Shown here piece after piece: positions 2,299 through 55,125 of a DNA stretch of 64,000 nucleotides. The DNA comes from Bacillota bacterium (GTDB lineage Bacteria; Bacillota; PH28-bin88). The stretch is taken from contig JBFLXH010000005.1 of the NCBI GenBank assembly GCA_040757295.1, positions 7,014-71,013 of the forward strand, written 5' to 3'. The translations under genes were made by a program, and so were the position numbers. The first letter of the stretch is position 1, and each line of letters opens with the position of its first letter. The notes below the pieces were generated by a model. The model saw nothing but the letters and a program-made list of their open reading frames with translations, was not told where the DNA came from and did no database searches.

Positions 2299-3858
2299 CT
2301 ATTCCAAATCCATCTTTTTGGAGCTGTTTTCTTCCTTCATTTTGATAATGGTGTCAATTCGCAAAATGGCTTCAGAAACTTCAGCCGCCGTTTTTAACGC
2401 ATAAATCTTCACCAAGACAGGATCGGTAATACCAAGGGAATACATATTTGCCACTTCACCGGTGTCGCAATTAAGGGCAAAGGCCGGAGATTTATGCTCG
2501 GACTGGGCAGCCAGCACATCCCCCAGCTTTTCTAAGGGGTTAAAACCCGCATTGACTACAATCTGAGCAAAAGGCCTTTGCAGAGCTGTTACCACGCAAT
2601 CAACCCCATAAGCGGCCATTCCCCGCATTTCCGCTTTTACTCTTTCAACCTCCCTGGCAGCAGCCAGCTCAATGGATCCCCCGCCTGGCACAATGCCGGA
2701 TTTTACCGCGGCCTGGACTGAGGCAGCCGCATCTTTGGCGATCCGCTCACGTTCACCCACCACCTCTTCAGTGGCAGCTCCCACCAGAATGGTAGCCATG
2801 GGTTTGCCTGACCCGCCAATAATCCGGACATGCTCCAGTTTCTCGTCTAACAAGACCACTTTTGCAGACCCTAAGAATCTTGCTAATTCGGCAGGTGTCC
2901 TTCTTAAACCGGTGCGCTTGACGGCCCGAGCTCCCGTATGTTCTGCGGCCTTCACCAGTTCTTTGTGAGAAACCCGCTGGACCACCATTACTCCCGCATC
3001 AGTCAGCATTTCCTCTGCTTCGTCGTCCACCCCGCGGTCAACCAGTATTACCTTCACTCCGAGAGCAATGACTTTCTGCAGGTTTGACCTGAATTCTTCC
3101 CGCAGGGCAAGGTACCGCTGAAACCCTGTTTCGGTGGCCAAGGCTTCTTCCTCCACGGTCTCTGGTTCAAGGGCGTCATCTACAACCAGCACGGGTGCAT
3201 CAGTTACCTCCCGCGGCATATCCTTGTTCATAGTTTCTTTATTAATGATTAGTCCCTGAAAAACCATATTGGCTGCCGCAGCCTGGGCTACTACCGCTTC
3301 GGCCAACTGGAATTTGGGTTCCAACAGTTTTTCTTTGCCGATGAGCTTGGCGGCTTCCACTACCAGGTTAGCAATATCCTGGTACTCCCGTCCGGCAACC
3401 AAGGCAACCTCCAAGAGCCTGGGATCCTCTATTGTGTCTACAGGCTTTGCAACCTCATTAAAGTATTCGATGGCCCTTTTTACCCCTGCCCTGATCCCCT
3501 CGATTACCCGGGCCACAGGAACACCCTTAATCACCTGTTCCAAACCGCTGTTGACAAGGGCTCCGGCCATAATCGTGGTTGTAGTGGTGCCATCACCAAT
3601 CTCATCCTGTTGGGCTTTGGCGGCGTTGATCAGCATCCTGGCAGCAGGATGATTGACCTCCATCAAATTAAGGATGGTCACACCATCATTGGTAATGACC
3701 ACCTCGCCAAAGCGATCTACTAACATGGTATCCAAACCTTTAGGGCCGATGGTGCCTTCCACAGCCGAAGCAATCGCCCTAATGGCATTGGCATTGGTGA
3801 TAAGGGCGGCTAACCGCTCGTCTACCTCTGCGTTTTGGTTAACCTGTTTCACACTCAT
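2299..3858 (-). CDS. Group II-like (thermosome/TCP-1 type, bacterial 'group III') chaperonin, 519 aa
   Basis: GPKGLDTMLVD...VITNDGVTIL...NHPAARML...AKAQQDEIGDGTTTT matches the group II Cpn60/TCP-1 signature, not GroEL. Embedded between hrcA and grpE with a 26-nt gap to grpE and no separate terminator. Confidence 0.8.
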   Translation of the reverse strand: MSVKQVNQNAEVDERLAALITNANAIRAIASAVEGTIGPKGLDTMLVDRFGEVVITNDGVTILNLMEVNHPAARMLINAAKAQQDEIGDGTTTTTIMAGALVNSGLEQVIKGVPVARVIEGIRAGVKRAIEYFNEVAKPVDTIEDPRLLEVALVAGREYQDIANLVVEAAKLIGKEKLLEPKFQLAEAVVAQAAAANMVFQGLIINKETMNKDMPREVTDAPVLVVDDALEPETVEEEALATETGFQRYLALREEFRSNLQKVIALGVKVILVDRGVDDEAEEMLTDAGVMVVQRVSHKELVKAAEHTGARAVKRTGLRRTPAELARFLGSAKVVLLDEKLEHVRIIGGSGKPMATILVGAATEEVVGERERIAKDAAASVQAAVKSGIVPGGGSIELAAAREVERVKAEMRGMAAYGVDCVVTALQRPFAQIVVNAGFNPLEKLGDVLAAQSEHKSPAFALNCDTGEVANMYSLGITDPVLVKIYALKTAAEVSEAILRIDTIIKMKEENSSKKMDLE

Positions 3859-3896: not shown

Positions 3897-4928
3897 TTAC
3901 AGCATTTGCTTTATAGCGCGGGAAAGGGCCGCAGCTACAAATTCCACCAAACTGACCGCCTTGGCATAGTCCATGCGGGTTGGGCCAATCAGGCCTACAG
4001 TCCCCAGCAGTTGGCCATCAAGCTGGTAGGTTGTTGTAACCAAGCTGCATTCGGAAATCCCTTCATGATTATTCTCCCCGCCAATCCGGATATTTAATCC
4101 AATATTGCCAGGATGCTCTAGGAGATCCCGCAGCACTTTGCCTTCCTCCAGAATGGACAGCAAACTCTTGATTTTAGTAATATCCTTAAATTCTGGCTGA
4201 TTAAGGATATTAAGGGTGCCTCCCAAAAAAATCCTGTCATCCTTATTATCTGACGTCAACTGCTCCAAGGCCTCCAAAACCGTGCTGGCCAGCTTCTTTT
4301 GGAAAGACAGTTCAGACAGGATTTCATCAAAGGTATCCTCTTTCAACTGCTCCAATGCCAAGCCTTTTAGCTTGCTGTTTAATACTCTGGATACCCGCTC
4401 CAGATCATGCTCTGTTATCCCCGGGTGAATATCCAAGACCTGGTGTTCAACCACCCTGGTATTTGTGATTACTACCAAAAGGGCTTTTGTTGGCTCCACC
4501 TGCAGAAGCTGGATACGCTGGAAAGTGCTTCGGCCCATGGATGGAGCCAGAATAACAGCAGTTTGATGTGTCATTAATGATAAAAGATTTGTAGAGCGCT
4601 GGATTAAATCCTCAATCTCAGTCATCTTCTGGGCAAATCGCTCTTGAATATACTCCCGCTCCTGAGGAGTGAGACAATACTTTTCCATCAAACAATCCAC
4701 ATAGTAACGATAACCCCTATTAGAAGGGATGCGTCCTGCTGAAGTATGGGGTTGCTCGATGTAGCCCAATTCTTCCAAGTCAGCCATCTCATTGCGGATG
4801 GTAGCGGGACTGACGCCAAGGTTATACTTCCGGGCAATGGTGCGGGATCCTACAGGCTCAGCGGTAAACACATAATCATTGACAATAGCTGCCAGCACTT
4901 TTTTCTTCCGCTCGTCAAGACCCATCAT
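3897..4928 (-). CDS. hrcA: Heat-inducible transcription repressor HrcA
   Basis: N-terminus MMGLDERKKKVLAAIVNDYV, HrcA family. ATG at 4926-4928 lies 4 nt after AGGAGGTG. The CIRCE operator is immediately upstream. Confidence 0.85.
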   Translation of the reverse strand: MMGLDERKKKVLAAIVNDYVFTAEPVGSRTIARKYNLGVSPATIRNEMADLEELGYIEQPHTSAGRIPSNRGYRYYVDCLMEKYCLTPQEREYIQERFAQKMTEIEDLIQRSTNLLSLMTHQTAVILAPSMGRSTFQRIQLLQVEPTKALLVVITNTRVVEHQVLDIHPGITEHDLERVSRVLNSKLKGLALEQLKEDTFDEILSELSFQKKLASTVLEALEQLTSDNKDDRIFLGGTLNILNQPEFKDITKIKSLLSILEEGKVLRDLLEHPGNIGLNIRIGGENNHEGISECSLVTTTYQLDGQLLGTVGLIGPTRMDYAKAVSLVEFVAAALSRAIKQML

Positions 4929-6221: not shown

Positions 6222-6437
6222 AAAAGCTCCCACTTTGCCGTTTACCGAGGGTTTCTGAACCTGCCCCAGCAGGTGGGTATCCTACCAGCAGCTTTTGTCT
6301 ACCGAGCAAAGTCGGCCTGACAGCCACTTCCGGACACGGATTCCCGTAGAAACGGTGTTGGTTCAAAACACAAACGGTTCAACACGAACATCGCAGGATA
6401 TAATCTTTTTTTGCCCTTCAATCTACCGGGCAAAGCT

Positions 6438-6467: not shown

Positions 6468-6499
6468 AGGGAAATTATTAGGAAAGGAAATCTAGGTGT

Positions 6500-6908
6500 T
6501 CAGTAGTCAGACCCCCTCGCCGCCTATAGCGGCACCATCGAAAGAGGAAAATTTTATTTTCAGGGTAGAATTCAAAATACCTCGGGGGATAATCGGATGC
6601 ATTGGTGATTACCGGAGTAAAACATTACGGCGCATTAGTTCAAAGAGCGAAGAAGCCTGAGGATAAGCCGCAGCCGGTGTTTGAGGGCCTTTAGGCCCGA
6701 GTTCCAGTGCGGCATGAATACCCGCAAGGGGCAGGCCGTCCGGCTAAGGCGGCAAAGCCGCCAAGCCTCCCGCACGGCGACTGAGCTCGTTCGGGAATAA
6801 GAGCGCCGTCCTTTACGGAGGTAACACCAAGGCAGCCAAGCAGCTTTCCTAAAAACCTGGGGACTTCTTTCTCCCCTTCTGACTTCTGACTTCTGACCAC
6901 TGACTACT
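6500..6908 (+). repeat. Structured non-coding repeat element, copy A (~410 bp), abutting the lepA stop codon
   Basis: About 88% identical to the reverse complement of 43023-43460. Flanked by an inverted repeat (GTAGTCAG ... CTGACTAC) and by TTCTGAC x3 heptamers. Contains conserved hairpins (GGCGGC-AAA-GCCGCC, CCCGCAAGGG with a GNRA loop) and has no credible ORF. Confidence 0.6.
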
Positions 6909-6910
6909 TA

Positions 6911-8722
6911 TCATTTATCTACTTGCAGCACAGCCATAAAGGCTTCCTGGGGAATTTCCACATTTCCTACCTGCTTCATCCGGCGCTTTCCTTCTTTTTG
7001 TTTTTCCAAGAGCTTCCGCTTACGGGTTACATCTCCGCCATAGCACTTTTCCAAGACGTTTTTCCGCATCGCCTTGACCGTATCCCGGGCGATAACCTTA
7101 TTCCCAATAGCAGCCTGGATAGGTATTTCAAAAAGGTGCCGGGGAATCAGTTCCCGCAGCTTTTCCGTCAGAGATCTGCCCCGGTGATAAGCTCTGTCCC
7201 CGTGAACAATACAAGACAAGGCGTCCACCACTTCTCCGGCAATAAGGATATCCAGCTTAACCAACTGGGATTCCCGGTAGCCAATTAACTCGTAATCCAT
7301 AGAGGCATAACCTCTGGTGCGAGATTTGAGGATATCAAAAAAGTCATAAATGATCTCACTTAGGGGCAATTCATATTCCAACATAACTCTTTTTTCCGAC
7401 AGGTATTCCATATTAGAGAACTGCCCGCGCCGGTCCTGGGCAAGTTCCATTACCGATCCCACATAGTCAGTAGGTACCATGATCGTGGATTTTACATAGG
7501 GCTCTTCCATCTTTTCAATGAAGTTTGGCAGCGGCAGGGCTGCAGGGTTATCAACCTCCAAGACTTCACCGTCAGTTTTCGTAACCCGGTAAATTACGTT
7601 GGGCGCTGTGGTTATTAGCTCCAGCTTGTATTCCCGCTCCAACCGCTCCTGGATTATTTCCATATGCAAAAGGCCCAAAAACCCGCAGCGGAAACCAAAG
7701 CCCAGGGCCAAAGAAGATTCCGGTTCAAAAACCAAAGAAGCGTCATTAAGTTTTAGTTTTTCCAAGGCATCCCGCAAATCTTCATACTGAGCCGTGTCTA
7801 CCGGATAAAGGCCGCAGAATACCATTGGCGTAACCCGGCGGTATCCCGGCAAAGGTAGGGCTGCCGGTGTCTTCCCACCGGTAATCGTATCCCCAACGCT
7901 GGTGTCTTTGACATTTTTGATACTGGCAGTCAAAAAACCTACTTCCCCTGCCGACAAGGATTCTGCTTGCCGCATGGCCGGTGTGAAAACCCCAACTTCA
8001 TTTACCTCAAAGGTTTTACCCGTGGACATCATTTTTATTTCCATACCCTTTTTTAAGCTGCCTTCAACTAAACGCACGTAAGGCACGGCGCCACGGTAGG
8101 AATCAAAATGAGAATCAAAAATAAGGGCCCTGAGCGGAGCCTCAGCGGCCCCAGTTGGAGGAGGAATTCTCCGCACGATAGCCTCCAAGATTTCCACTGT
8201 ACCGAGCCCGGTCTTGGCTGAGGCCAGAATAGCATCGGAAGCATCCAATCCAATAACGTCTTCAATTTCCCGCTTCACCCGCTCTGGGTCTGCGCTAGGC
8301 AGGTCTATTTTGTTAATAATAGGAATTATCTCCAGGTCGTGCTCCATGGCCAGGTAGACGTTAGCCAGGGTCTGAGCCTCAATCCCCTGGGAAGCGTCCA
8401 CTACCAGCAGGGCCCCTTCACAGGCAGCAAGGCTGCGGGATACTTCATAGGTAAAATCAACATGACCGGGTGTATCAATCAAATTCAATACATAATCCAG
8501 CCCGTCTTTGGCACGGTAGTTCAATCTAACAGCCTGTAACTTAATGGTAATCCCCCGCTCCCGCTCCAGGTCCATCTGATCCAATACCTGTTCAGCCATT
8601 TCCCGGGAAGAAAGGGCGCCGGTGAATTCAAGCAGGCGGTCAGCCAGGGTTGATTTTCCATGGTCAATATGGGCAATGATGCAAAAATTCCGGATAAACT
8701 GTTGTCCCCGAGCACCGCTCAT
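6911..8722 (-). CDS. lepA: Elongation factor 4 (LepA)
   Basis: [17 protein letters not shown] GTPase N-terminus, 603 aa, double stop TGATAA. Confidence 0.9.
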
Positions 8723-8805: not shown

Positions 8806-8925
8806 AAAAGTACTACTAGGAGTCAGAAGTCAGGAGCCAGAATGAAAGAGCGGTTTATCGTCTCGGGGCATTTTTGAATTCTGTCTACTGACTTCTGAAT
8901 ACCTGAATAGTAACAGATAAAAAGT
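8806..8925. repeat. Short (~120 bp) member/fragment of the same repeat family, with imperfect terminal inverted repeats (GAGTCAGAAGTCAG ... CTGACTTCTGAAT)
   Basis: Matches one end of the 410-bp elements (AGGAGTCAGAA ... ATTTTTGAATTCTG ... CTGAATAGTAACAG). Sits 1 nt after the murJ stop. Confidence 0.5.
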
Positions 8926-17763: not shown

Positions 17764-17861
17764 GGCAATTCCTCCGTTCCTTTGTTAGGTAACATGTCTA
17801 CTGTTAATATTATCCCGAGGCTTCGCCTAATAGCAAGCCGCAGTTATTCAACTGGGTCTTG

Positions 17862-17983
17862 GCTTCAGCGGGGGATTGCTTCCCCCGCTGAGCTTAGAGC
17901 CAGTTAATACAGTGGCGTAGCCGCTCTTATCCCGCCGCTTGGAGAAGCGGGGGTATTAGAGCGGGTAGCCATCTGTGATAAAA
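17862..17983. repeat. GC-rich palindromic repeat units shared with 39036-39455 (second repeat family)
   Basis: 17862-17935 is the reverse complement of 39368-39455 (CTTCAGCGGGGG ... CCCCCGCTGA(A)GCTTAGAGCCAGTTAATACA ... GCGTAGCCGCTCTTA). 17956-17983 matches the reverse complement of 39036-39063. Confidence 0.5.
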
Positions 17984-18028
17984 AGCCGGGTTTTCCTAAA
18001 GCCTGAGGAATTGATCCGAGACAAACCC

Positions 18029-20736: not shown

Positions 20737-20913
20737 GCAAAACAAAACGCCTCTCCTATGACAAGAAGAGGCATGAAAACTTATCCTCCTCTTATCTCTC
20801 AGGAATAACCTGCAGGAATTGGCACCAATTCAAATAATCACGGCTATGCGGCCATCAATTCGAACGGTTGCCGGGCTTCATCGGGCCAGTCCCTCCACCT
20901 CTCTAGATAAGAG
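20737..20913 (-). ncRNA. SAM-I (S-box) riboswitch with intrinsic terminator, upstream of metY
   Basis: Minus strand reads CUCUUAUCUAGAGAGGUGGAGGGACUGGCCCGAUGAAGCCCGGCAACC ... GGUGCCAAUUCCUGCAGG ... GAGAGAUAAGAG, the canonical S-box core. It is followed by a GCCUCU ... AGAGGC hairpin + GUUUUGUUUUGC. Confidence 0.85.
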
Positions 20914-23583: not shown

Positions 23584-23870
23584 ATGCCTAGCCGAAAAAC
23601 AATTTGCTAGGTTGGGCAGACCGGTGATCGGAAGATGCCTCCACCTACCAGATGTGCTCCTAGCTACCGTCAGGAGGGATATGCCCATTACCGGGTCGTT
23701 GTCCATTCCTCTTCACTCGCGCCGCCGGTTATAACCCTGCCAGGCCGGAAGGCTAACCCCGGTACGCCTCCCGTCGATGCTTTACATGCAGGACGTAGAG
23801 GAGGCCCTTTTCCCGGTCAAAACGTAGGATAACCCGCCAGTCACCAACTCTGTATCGCCATATGTCCGCA
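23584..23870. repeat. 287-bp direct repeat, copy 1 (covers the last ~40 codons of the RelE-like toxin gene plus ~170 bp downstream)
   Basis: Near-identical to 25345-25629 except for one ~50-bp divergent patch. Confidence 0.7.
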
Positions 23871-25344: not shown

Positions 25345-25629
25345 GATGCCTAGCCGAAAAACAATTTGCTAGGTTGGGCAGACCGGTGATCGGAAGATGC
25401 CTCCACCTACCAGATGTGCTCCTACTACCGCCAGGGGGGATTGCCAATTATCGTTTGGTCGTTGTCCATTCCTCTTCACTCGCACCGGTTATAACCCTGC
25501 CAGGCCGGAAGGCTAACCCCGGTACGCCTCCCGTCGATGCTTCACATGCAGGACGTAGAGGAGGCCCTTTTCCCGGTCAAACGTAGGATAACCCGCCAGT
25601 CACCAACTCTATACCGCCATATGTCCGCA
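25345..25629. repeat. 287-bp direct repeat, copy 2 (contains a frameshifted relic of the RelE-like 3' end)
   Basis: Same sequence as copy 1. The toxin-derived part lacks one T (CGTTTGACC vs CGTTTTGACC), giving a premature stop. ORFs 25163-25447 and 25296-25586 inside it are not credible. Confidence 0.7.
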
Positions 25630-37695: not shown

Positions 37696-37965
37696 AAAAG
37701 AAAAACCTCCCGCCCCATGCCTTGGGACGGGAAGTTTTATTTCCCGCGTTACCACCCAAATTGGTAATAATAAGTAATCATTACTACCCTCTCAAGGTTT
37801 ATTAACGGCAACCAGCCGGCACAGGTTAAAAATTCACCTGCACAGCTCCCGGGCGAGTTCAGCGGGCTTCCTGCTGTTTTTCACCATCCAACAGCTCTCT
37901 GATAAAGCTGACCCAGCCTAATGCTCCCGTTCACTGCTTTTCCCATTAGTTGATTAATAATTAAC
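37696..37965 (-). ncRNA. T-box riboswitch leader (Leu, specifier CUC region) with intrinsic terminator, upstream of leuS
   Basis: The T-box sequence AAUUUGGGUGGUAACGCGG is the reverse complement of 37746-37763. It is followed by the terminator CUUCCCGUCCC ... GGGGCGGGAGG + U-run. Stem I contains AGAGA and GAACUCGCC. Confidence 0.7.
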
Positions 37966-39035: not shown

Positions 39036-39460
39036 CCTATTTATCACAGATGGCTACCCGCTCTAAGGAACGGGGACACACCGCTTACAAATCGCTCTTG
39101 CCGCAGAAGCACTCTAAAGTTAAGGTTACAGGGGACATGTCTACCGCATTCATCCTTAACGCGGAATGTCCCCAACGCGTTCGCTTCTTTAAAGCGGCGG
39201 GATATGCTCGGCATGAAATTCGCTTTGAGGCCACATTTAATCAAGGAATAATTGGTGGCCTCGCTCATTATATGCTCGGCGAGGAATAAAATTTGATTAC
39301 AGTCAATGAAGCCGAGCATGAAATTCGCTTTGAGGCCACATTTAATCAAGGAATAATTGGTGGCCTCGCTCATTTTAAGAGCGGCTACGCCATTGTATTA
39401 ACTGGCTCTAAGCTTCAGCGGGGGTAGCAATCCCCCGCTGAAGCTTAGAGCCAGTTGAAG
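39036..39460. repeat. Repeat-dense non-coding region: two tandem 63-bp direct repeats (39206-39268, 39311-39373) each with an 8-bp-stem hairpin, plus a 21-bp-arm perfect palindrome (39402-39450)
   Basis: GAGGCCAC-N20-GTGGCCTC units, and GGCTCTAAGCTTCAGCGGGGG-tagcaat-CCCCCGCTGAAGCTTAGAGCC. Homologous units occur at 17862-17983 and 55025-55125. ORF 39044-39373 is an artefact of the tandem repeat. Confidence 0.55.
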
Positions 39461-42993: not shown

Positions 42994-43022
42994 CTACACC
43001 CACCTCATTAAATTAGGTAGTC

Positions 43023-43460
43023 AGAATTCAGCACTTAGTATTCAGAATTTTTCACGCAACCGTCCTCCCATTCTGACTCCTGCCCTGAAAATAAAATTTC
43101 CTGTTAGGTTTTTAAAGGCTACTTGACTGCCTTGGTGTTACCTCTGTAAACGACGGCGCTCTTATTCCTGAACGAGCTCGGTCACCGTGCGGGAGACTTG
43201 GCGGCTTTGCCGCCTTAGTCGGACGGTCTACCCCTTGCGGGTATTCGGGACGCACCGGAACCCGGGCCTACGGCCCTCAAACACCGGCTGCGTCTAATCC
43301 TCAGGTTCCTCGCTCTTTGAACTTAAGCGCCGTAATGTTTACTTCCGGTAATCACCAATGCATCCTAGTTTGAAAATACAATTTTCCTCGCCTGATGGTG
43401 CCGCCATAGGCGGCATGGGGGTCTGACTCCTGTTACTTATTAGGTAGTCGGAATTCAGCA
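43023..43460 (-). repeat. Structured non-coding repeat element, copy B (~440 bp, inverted relative to copy A), bounded by 22-bp direct repeats TTAGGTAGTC(A/G)GAATTCAGCAC
   Basis: The reverse complement aligns with 6500-6908 at ~88%, with loop-only and compensatory-looking changes around conserved hairpins. It lies between the yhbY 3' end and the proB RBS. Confidence 0.6.
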
Positions 43461-43854
43461 CCCAAGACAGGAGAACCGTCCCCTTGTCTCCGGCCAGCAC
43501 CCAAGACAGGAGAACCGTCCCCTTGTCTATTCGGCCAGCACCCAAGACAGGAGAACCGTCCCCTTGTCTATTCTGCGGTTTTTTCTTGGAAGGCCGGTAA
43601 AAAAGAAGGGTGCGGCCAATAACCTGCACCAGGTCCGCGCCGGTACCCTGAGCCAGATCAACCGCCACTTGTTCAGTTTCTTCTTCGCAGTTTTGCAGGA
43701 CCTTAGCCTTCACCAATTCCCTGGCCTCCAGGGCCTCGTCCAATTGGCGCAAGACATTGTCATTAAGCCCGCCCTTGCCCACCTGAACGATTGCCTCCAG
43801 GCTCGTCCCCATGGCTCTTAAATAGCGCTTCTGTTTTCCGCTTAAGGCTGCCAT
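43339..43854 (-). CDS. yhbY: Ribosome-assembly RNA-binding protein YhbY (CRS1/YhbY domain) with an aberrant ~75-aa C-terminal extension read through the tandem repeat into repeat element B
   Basis: Residues 1-95 (MAALSGKQKRYLRAMG ... LVQVIGRTLLFYRPSKKKPQ) form a complete YhbY domain. No stop follows. Translation continues through the repeat units (giving DKGTVLLSWVL twice) and ends at a TAA inside element B (43339). ATG at 43852-43854 lies 6 nt after GGGGAGG. Confidence 0.6.
   Translation of the reverse strand: MAALSGKQKRYLRAMGTSLEAIVQVGKGGLNDNVLRQLDEALEARELVKAKVLQNCEEETEQVAVDLAQGTGADLVQVIGRTLLFYRPSKKKPQNRQGDGSPVLGAGRIDKGTVLLSWVLAGDKGTVLLSWVLNSDYLISNRSQTPMPPMAAPSGEENCIFKLGCIGDYRK
43459..43578. 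repeat. Tandem direct repeat, 3 units of 39-41 bp (CACCCAAGACAGGAGAACCGTCCCCTTGTCT(ATT)CGGCCAG), each with an internal hairpin
   Basis: Read directly. No spacers between units, so this is not a CRISPR array. Confidence 0.65.
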
Positions 43855-43871
43855 ACTGTTCCTCCCCACGT

Positions 43872-54985: not shown

Positions 54986-55024
54986 TTTATCCCTCCTCCA
55001 ATTTATCTTATAATGAGCAAGGCC

Positions 55025-55125
55025 ACTAATTATTCATTGATTTGCCGTGGCCTCAAAGCGAATTTCATACTCGGCTTCATTATGATAATGCAATTTTATC
55101 CCTTGCCGAGTATATCATAATTATT
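55025..55125. repeat. Inverted copy of the 63-bp hairpin repeat seen at 39206-39373
   Basis: The reverse complement reads AATGAAGCCGAGTATGAAATTCGCTTTGAGGCCAC ... AATAATTAGTGGCCTT. Confidence 0.45.

Follow-up and report, generated by a model that had tools for sequence, protein, structure and literature searches.

Loss of the in-frame yhbY stop codon in an uncultured Bacillota bacterium, probably by local rearrangement at the gene's own 3' hairpin, beside an unclassified structured repeat

Between obg (45149-43872) and proB (42993-41854), on the minus strand of a 64,000-nucleotide stretch of Bacillota bacterium contig JBFLXH010000005.1 (assembly GCA_040757295.1, positions 7,014 to 71,013; this whole stretch is hereafter the window, and its numbering is used throughout), lies a yhbY gene whose reading frame passes beyond the end of its domain into a short tandem array and then into an intergenic repeat, here called element B. 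The open reading frame (ORF) spans 43339..43869 (-), with ATG 43854 as the likely start of a product of 171 codons. An earlier note, made from the sequence alone, had placed the end of YhbY near residue 95 with no stop codon to follow; the domain is indeed complete before the extension, its exact end being Q94 counted from ATG 43854, and both the ORF and its translation confirm that no in-frame stop follows ...KKKPQ and that the frame crosses three hairpin units into element B. The match to the CRS1_YhbY domain (PF01985) covers aa 4-87 of the product and positions 1-84 of the 84 in the profile, at 102.8 bits against a gathering cut-off of 27 (1.3e-29). The extension, which had been thought to end about 100 nt inside element B, ends 92 nt inside the homology between its two copies, a homology that starts at 43432.

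The additional residues have no counterpart among the relatives. In a search of 5.8 billion protein clusters, the 120 homologues listed were 96-134 aa long (mostly 96-107) and covered no more than 55% of the 171-aa query, and among the matches listed no protein aligned to the last 77 residues. The exact 171-aa and 176-aa proteins were both absent from a 15-billion-protein collection, and the NCBI assembly records carry no yhbY product between obg and proB. A C-terminal I-x-L-P motif is found in all five relatives retrieved (IQLP, IELP, IVLPD, LELP and IKLP), and the 171-aa product of the window does not have the short tail with a P-x-I/L-x-L-P end. When the 231-nt extension was shuffled, 2.2% of the shuffles stayed open, so that no selection need be invoked to account for the open frame.

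The tandem array was recovered by Tandem Repeats Finder (43456-43573, period 41, 2.9 copies, 96% matches) and by a repeat search, which gave units at 43532-43572, 43491-43531 and 43452-43492 with spacings of 41 and 39; these, together with three exact copies of the hairpin, bear out the description of three 39-41-bp units each containing a hairpin. The 23-nt hairpin GACAAGGGGACGGTTCTCCTGTC occurs exactly three times in the whole window, where none is expected by chance, and all three copies lie at the yhbY 3' end. As RNA of the yhbY strand it is predicted to form a stem of 10 bp, interrupted by a single bulged A and capped by a CGGU loop, at about -13 to -16 kcal/mol. Units 1 and 2 begin with AATAG, which places a stop codon inside the duplicated segment, as can be read directly; the 41-nt segment, of which there are three tandem copies, thus comprises a stop codon, the hairpin and roughly 12 nt of sequence 3' of it. 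The hydrophobic peptide DKGTVLLSWVL, reported earlier as a product of every unit, is present twice and not three times: unit 1 reads NRQGDGSPVLGAG, because a 41-nt unit changes the frame. A CRISPR-like array (clustered regularly interspaced short palindromic repeats) was ruled out, as the units are identical and have no spacers. Considered as a terminator, the hairpin offers a stable 10-bp stem followed by UUGGGUG in the window versus UUGUUCU or UUAUUCU in the sister species described below; a terminator scan did not call it.

The closest YhbY (P0001), from a Syntrophomonadaceae metagenome-assembled genome (MAG; GCA_018333865.1) and several metagenomes, is 98 aa long and 98% identical over residues 1-94. 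As its locus shows 83-85% nucleotide identity across obg-yhbY and proB, it is taken to belong to a sister species, and the ancestral state discussed here is that read from this one sister. Its yhbY gene ends AAA AAA CCC CAG ATC CAG CTK CCG TAG (KKKPQIQLP*), the hairpin follows directly after the TAG (identical to that of the window in loci L005, L006 and L010), and proB lies 81 nt from the yhbY stop with no element B between them, i.e. an empty site. The sister gene end GCTGCCGTAG resembles the junction GCTGGCCGAATAG between units of the window, and likewise GGGTGCTG-GCCGAATAG at the between-unit junction resembles CAGCTG-CCG-TAG at the sister gene end. Since the hairpin is present in the sister without element B, it is the native 3' stem-loop of yhbY and lies outside that element. 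The comparison of yhbY 3' ends that the earlier note had proposed thus assigns the hairpin to the gene and not to the element. One of the outcomes that the note had named as refuting it, orthologues with the same extension and no repeat element, does not arise, as no protein among the matches listed aligned to the extension.

The stop codon was not erased, as had been supposed, but displaced. Where the sister has CAG-ATCCAGCTKCCG-TAG the window has CAG-AA-TAG, a net loss of 10 nt that removes the IQLP codons, and because of this loss the retained TAG at 43570-43568 falls in the -1 frame and the I-x-L-P tail is gone. Unit 2 carries its TAG in the +1 frame, 41 not being a multiple of three, and unit 3, whose TAG would be in frame, has GAG instead, so that frame 0 escapes to the first chance stop: it stays open across all three hairpins, across the left direct repeat flanking element B and then across 92 nt of element B, up to a TAA. 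The spacer has also grown. In Zhaonella formicivorans yhbY and proB are separated by 15 nt on the same strand, which suggests that they are co-transcribed there, and given this and the 81 nt of the sister, the 579 nt that separate codon Q94 from proB in the window are, judged by these two relatives, derived. The same Zhaonella locus (CP085524.1; L114 209-1925) has a nucleotidyltransferase pair (PF08780/PF01909) and two small ORFs between obg and yhbY, and the obg-yhbY junction is on this showing also a site of lineage-specific insertions.

We consider it highly probable that this is a degenerate yhbY allele, the outcome of local rearrangements of the slippage type at the 3' hairpin of the gene itself, with an unrelated repeat element nearby. 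Understood in this way, the case is one of ordinary frameshift decay, or a pseudogene, in a metagenome-assembled genome, and no new mechanism is involved. Because the unit junction resembles the sister gene end, the ancestor of the lineage would have ended ...CAGATCCAGCTGGCCGAATAG-hairpin-GGGTGCTGAATTC; misalignment between the GCTG microhomologies at its two edges, probably assisted by the hairpin, would then have duplicated the 41-nt unit, and the frameshift would be due to the loss of some 13 nt at the first junction. Element B may have arrived in the spacer on a separate occasion, with duplication of 23 nt of native spacer sequence, or a single error-prone repair event might have produced all of these changes. 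In our reading element B, an unclassified and possibly mobile structured repeat, inserted into the spacer and was not the agent of the stop loss, as it lies past the third hairpin, in the spacer. The earlier idea of a recent insertion into the 3' end of the gene is thus correct as far as the gain of element B is concerned, which is specific to this lineage (empty site and 81-nt spacer in the sister), and fails on its place and its role, since the element is neither in the gene nor the cause.

If made, the product would be a YhbY core without the I-x-L-P tail followed by 77 residues of non-coding origin. The gene had been called essential, which is too strong, since the E. coli delta-yhbY strain is a viable Keio mutant (PMC12457515), and this makes an impaired allele or pseudogene plausible. 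In the window yhbY would then be impaired or a pseudogene, a state presumably tolerable given its dispensability in E. coli.

Several points weigh against this reading. As the genome is a MAG built from short reads, and contigs of the independent Logan assembly break at 43544 and at 43214, the count of tandem units and the continuity through element B are provisional. How large the events were and in what order they came, such as a 13-nt deletion as opposed to other routes, is a tentative reconstruction from one sister species. A 77-codon frame stays open in only about 2% of shuffles, which makes chance an adequate explanation and not an overwhelming one.

The rival that survives best, although we think it improbable, is that the units, the junction or the element B join were mis-assembled or are strain chimeras and that the true yhbY is intact and encodes 98 aa. 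The window is 100% identical to contig JBMOOT010000036.1 of GCA_049323775.1, itself a MAG; Logan contigs from the same run are interrupted within unit 1 and again within element B; and a second NCBI assembly with an identical Obg (MEW6661326.1) has a contig, of 102,324 nt, that is 94 nt longer. Set against this, a different assembler, that of the Logan assembly of run SRR32167787, reproduces the junction CCGCAGAATAGACAAGG in a contig (L095) recorded in two samples, where ...AAAAAACCGCAGAATAGACAAGG... is continuous with unique yhbY sequence, and the frameshift junction is read-supported. This contig carries obg and yhbY, continues through ...AAAAAACCGCAGAATAGACAAGGGGACGGTTCTCCTGTCTT and stops at 43544, because a 31-mer graph must branch there if units 1 and 2 both exist; the break is exactly what real repeats predict. 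There is no graph branch where an intact allele would diverge (intact-type junction ...CAGATCCAGCTG(G)CCG(AA)TAG, window junction CAGAATAG), and no intact YhbY with the N-terminal sequence of the window was found in the protein collection, the best other match being that of the sister at 98%. The read-level support called for at the outset thus covers the first junction, the Logan contig ending inside unit 1; another Logan contig begins at 43214, inside element B.

That the altered gene is functional, either as a selected 171-aa isoform or through a -1 slip on the A6 run giving a 97-aa protein (...KKKTAE*) that ends at the native TAG, we regard as very unlikely. The -1 frame does end at the retained TAG, the A6 run is followed 9 nt on by a stable hairpin and the domain core (aa 4-87) is intact, but the A6 run is also native in the sister, the extension has no homologue in the protein searches and the conserved I-x-L-P tail is lost. 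As a frameshift cassette, judged by sequence only, the site has the 9-nt spacer and the hairpin, and its heptamer G AAA AAA departs from X XXY YYZ. That pattern is the canonical slippery site; G AAA AAA is non-canonical and six As are short for slippage. Least credible of all is the proposal that the hairpin array is a terminator or 3' untranslated-region module of element B that arrived together with it: the array adjoins the left end of the element and both are absent or expanded only in this lineage, but the sister has the identical hairpin right after the yhbY TAG with no element B, copy 2 of the element lacks the hairpin, which is found nowhere else in the window, and every unit holds the stop triplet of yhbY together with traces of the gene's last codons.

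Read as a degenerate allele, yhbY provides a clean, datable example of a 3' hairpin seeding tandem duplication and stop displacement, and illustrates that an ORF running into a repeat element can stem from a small local indel and not from the element itself. It also flags a pseudogene or an altered ribosome-assembly factor in an uncultured Bacillota bacterium, and warns annotators off a '171-aa YhbY fusion'. The nearest comparison is with slipped-strand frameshift pseudogenes, with which it shares a tandem duplication bounded by GCTG and a small deletion followed by reading to the next chance stop, and from which it differs in having the stop codon inside the repeated unit, so that stop triplets stand in two other frames. 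Rickettsia palindromic elements are in-frame internal insertions conserved among orthologues. The yhbY array resembles them as hairpin-forming repeat DNA inside a reading frame, but it is read through a 3' frameshift only, in a single lineage and with no sign of conservation. Coordinates are collected in Table 1.

Table 1. Positions in the window of the yhbY 3' end, the tandem array and the two copies of element B
Feature	Position	Strand	Basis
yhbY, domain-homologous part (M1-Q94; CRS1_YhbY aa 4-87)	43573..43854	-	Pfam; 98% identity to sister 98-aa YhbY P0001
A6 run (AAG AAA AAA) in yhbY	43579..43584	-	frame translation only; role in slippage speculative
Read-through extension, 77 codons, NRQGDGSPVLGAGRIDKGTVLLSWVLAGDKGTVLLSWVLNSDYLISNRSQTPMPPMAAPSGEENCIFKLGCIGDYRK, from formerly non-coding DNA	43342..43572	-	frame translation
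Displaced native TAG, -1 frame	43568..43570	-	frame translation; homology to sister TAG
Second TAG copy, +1 frame	43527..43529	-	frame translation
TAA ending the extended yhbY frame, 92 nt inside element B homology	43339..43341	-	ORF and copy alignment
Tandem unit 1, 41 nt: AATAG, hairpin, GGGTGCTGGCCG; 5' edge is the frameshifting junction CCGCAG/AATAG	43532..43572	-	
Tandem unit 2, 41 nt, same sequence as unit 1; junction GCTGGCCGAATAG	43491..43531	-	
Tandem unit 3, spacing 39; GAG replaces AATAG; continues into left direct repeat	43452..43490	-	
Hairpin copy 1, native yhbY 3' stem-loop	43546..43568	-	exact match, fold, sister homology
Hairpin copies 2 and 3	43505-43527 and 43466-43488	-	exact matches
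Left 23-nt direct repeat (ATTAGGTAGTCGGAATTCAGCAC, + strand) flanking element B	43439..43461	.	repeat search
Right 23-nt direct repeat, 18 nt upstream of proB ATG 42993, in native spacer sequence	43012..43034	.	homology with sister spacer
Element B copy 1, insert between direct repeats; homology to copy 2 at 43106-43432	43035..43438	.	
Element B copy 2, flanked by the 6S RNA gene (6223-6402, -) and the end of lepA (stop at 6911)	6501..6858	+	
Element B core: CCC-GCAA-GGG hairpin and CUAAGGCGGCAAAGCCGCCAAG hairpin	43181..43247	-	covariance model R1, 81.3 bits; basal-stem covariation
Element B core in copy 2	6715-6781	+	covariance model
20-22-nt hairpin (CT)AAGGCGGCAAAGCCGCCAAG	window 43210-43231, 6744-6765; loci L065-L067, L072, L075, L076, L078, L079, L081, L083, L086, L087, L089, L090, L092, L096-L109		

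The two copies of element B are 81% identical over 358 nt. Copy 2 is bounded by 16-nt inverted repeats (6496-6511 / 6885-6900, 88% complementary) and a (CTTCTGA)n array, and a weaker equivalent of the inverted repeats, GGAGTCAGA / TCTGACTAC, was found by eye at copy 1. As a target-site duplication the 23-nt direct repeat at copy 1 is far longer than usual, and none flanks copy 2, for whose locus a search with the LepA C-terminus turned up relatives of at most 78% identity. Copy 1 contains a partial internal duplication (43068-43105) of its own other end (TCTGACTCCTG and TGAAAATAAAATTT; compare 43371-43432 and 6549-6578) and is without 27 nt present in copy 2, so the element is modular or rearranged and does not form a simple unit. 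Candidate identities as a coding gene, whose frames are broken and differ between the copies, and as a proB leader or T-box, for which there is no Rfam match and which in copy 2 would have no downstream gene on that strand, were both rejected. Nor does element B have the many near-identical copies and transposase relative of a miniature inverted-repeat transposable element: two copies are present in about 79 kb of contig, with none in the roughly 15 kb of added contig flank, and no transposase-bearing relative was seen.

Beyond the contig, full-length element B was not found in viral contigs, GTDB representative genomes, a metagenome contig collection, plasmids, phages or called proteins. In viral contigs a 20-mer and a 15-mer from the element gave chance matches only; in metagenome contigs the 21-mer GGATGCATTGGTGATTACCGG gave no match and a 22-mer gave 14 loci with the core or hairpin only; and BLAST against plasmids and phages returned nothing, or one 45-nt core match. 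When the longest frame through element B served as a protein query, which would pick up miscalled ORFs on other copies, there was no match, and the literature yielded nothing for a 17-mer. Like the REP/BIME, ERIC, Correia and BOX/RUP families, element B is non-coding, occupies spacers at the 3' ends of genes in two copies or more, and has inverted repeats (copy 2), direct repeats (copy 1) and an empty site in a relative; it differs from them in its size of about 340-400 nt, in a multi-helix structure with compensatory changes and in having no Rfam match.

Heptamer arrays, CTTCTGA x4.3 (6876-6905) and AGTCAGA x3.1 (8821-8842), which are reverse complements in register, flank lepA on both sides, and the 23-nt direct repeat by proB has the same 7-nt periodicity (TTCTGAA/TACTAAG/TGCTGAA/TTCTGAC); such arrays may be a preferred landing site of element B. 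Copy 2 stands between lepA and a strong promoter-like site upstream of the 6S gene (TTGACA-18-TATGAT, 6467-6438).

The predicted fold of element B is an extended structure of multiple helices (z-scores -5.3 and -3.0). Of the 24 differences between the two copies across a 243-column core, six fall into three compensatory pairs, compared to 0.34 expected (at most three in 2000 randomisations). Covariation is seen in the basal stem of the second core hairpin, where one position shows four pair types and 98% of cells are paired, versus 44-49% when partners are offset by one column. A covariance model of the core found only the two known copies in the window. Rfam 15, searched at gathering thresholds and at E<=10 across the window region and 15 related loci, has no family for element B or for its hairpin; at E<=10 the window region gave two chance-level matches only, and in Clostridiales bacterium PH28_bin88 a sub-threshold match to Clostridiales-2 (33 bits vs 58.6) lies just upstream of the core and not on it.

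The core and its hairpin are more widely distributed than the element. In GTDB genomes a 20-mer scan found a 45-64-nt core in PH28_bin88 and gut Clostridia, and the bare hairpin in many phyla. The bare 22-nt hairpin, intergenic and with flanks that are complementary but differ between instances, occurs in Rickettsiales, Acidobacteria, Acetobacteraceae, Sphingomonas, Treponema and termite-gut contigs. The 20-22-nt form has the same sequence throughout these groups and in Clostridia, and no Rfam family was found at any of its instances. PH28_bin88 has two copies of a repeat of about 250 nt containing a 64-nt core (L067 ~3420-3560, L078 ~4050-4190); on the CTAAGG strand they end in a hairpin and T-run that we take for an intrinsic terminator, which gives them the look of small RNA genes. 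A Peptococcaceae MAG (JAHZFN010000316.1; L066 871-1145) has three tandem 126-nt units, each with the same 20-mer hairpin. As to the transcribed strand, G-U outnumber A-C pairs by 9 to 1 in the other hairpin instances on the (CT)AAGGCGGCAAAGCCGCCAAG strand, which is yhbY-sense; the GNRA loop, the receptor-like loop and the terminator after the PH28_bin88 copies also favour the yhbY-sense strand, and G-U counts between the two element B copies slightly favour the strand antisense to yhbY.

The core bears some likeness to a known tertiary contact, the 11-nt tetraloop receptor, whose canonical sequence is CCUAAG...UAUGG (bioRxiv 10.1101/2024.03.11.584472). Element B has a C(GCAA)G hairpin beside a helix with a CUAAG/CAAG internal loop, but this loop departs from the receptor at two positions of the 3' strand, the variant is not characterised and the resemblance is one of sequence only; it may serve as a lead and not as a classification. 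It is possible, and we suggest it only tentatively, that element B is an undescribed structured RNA or RNA-like mobile element of Clostridia-related bacteria, the apical 22 nt of whose hairpin (CUAAGGCGGCAAAGCCGCCAAG) are identical in widely separated phyla and the basal stem of which covaries. If so, the 22-nt hairpin would be a widespread, unrecognised RNA tertiary or protein-binding module. Any wider value of the locus would lie in element B and this hairpin, which is conserved across phyla, has no Rfam match and could mark an undescribed RNA module.

The window holds further repeats and RNA genes. A 290-nt direct repeat (25346-25629 / 23584-23870, about 1.8 kb apart) is 94% identical between its copies. 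Another intergenic repeat family, perhaps an 'element A', occurs at 39211-39459, 17847-17994 and 55006-55118; at the first of these are a 70-nt tandem pair (39211-39280 / 39316-39385, 94%) and a 57-nt palindrome (39400-39456), beside which, at 39397, a Logan contig from the same run ends. At gathering thresholds Rfam identifies a 6S RNA (6223-6402, -), a SAM riboswitch (20789-20913, -) and a T-box leader (37720-37943, -).

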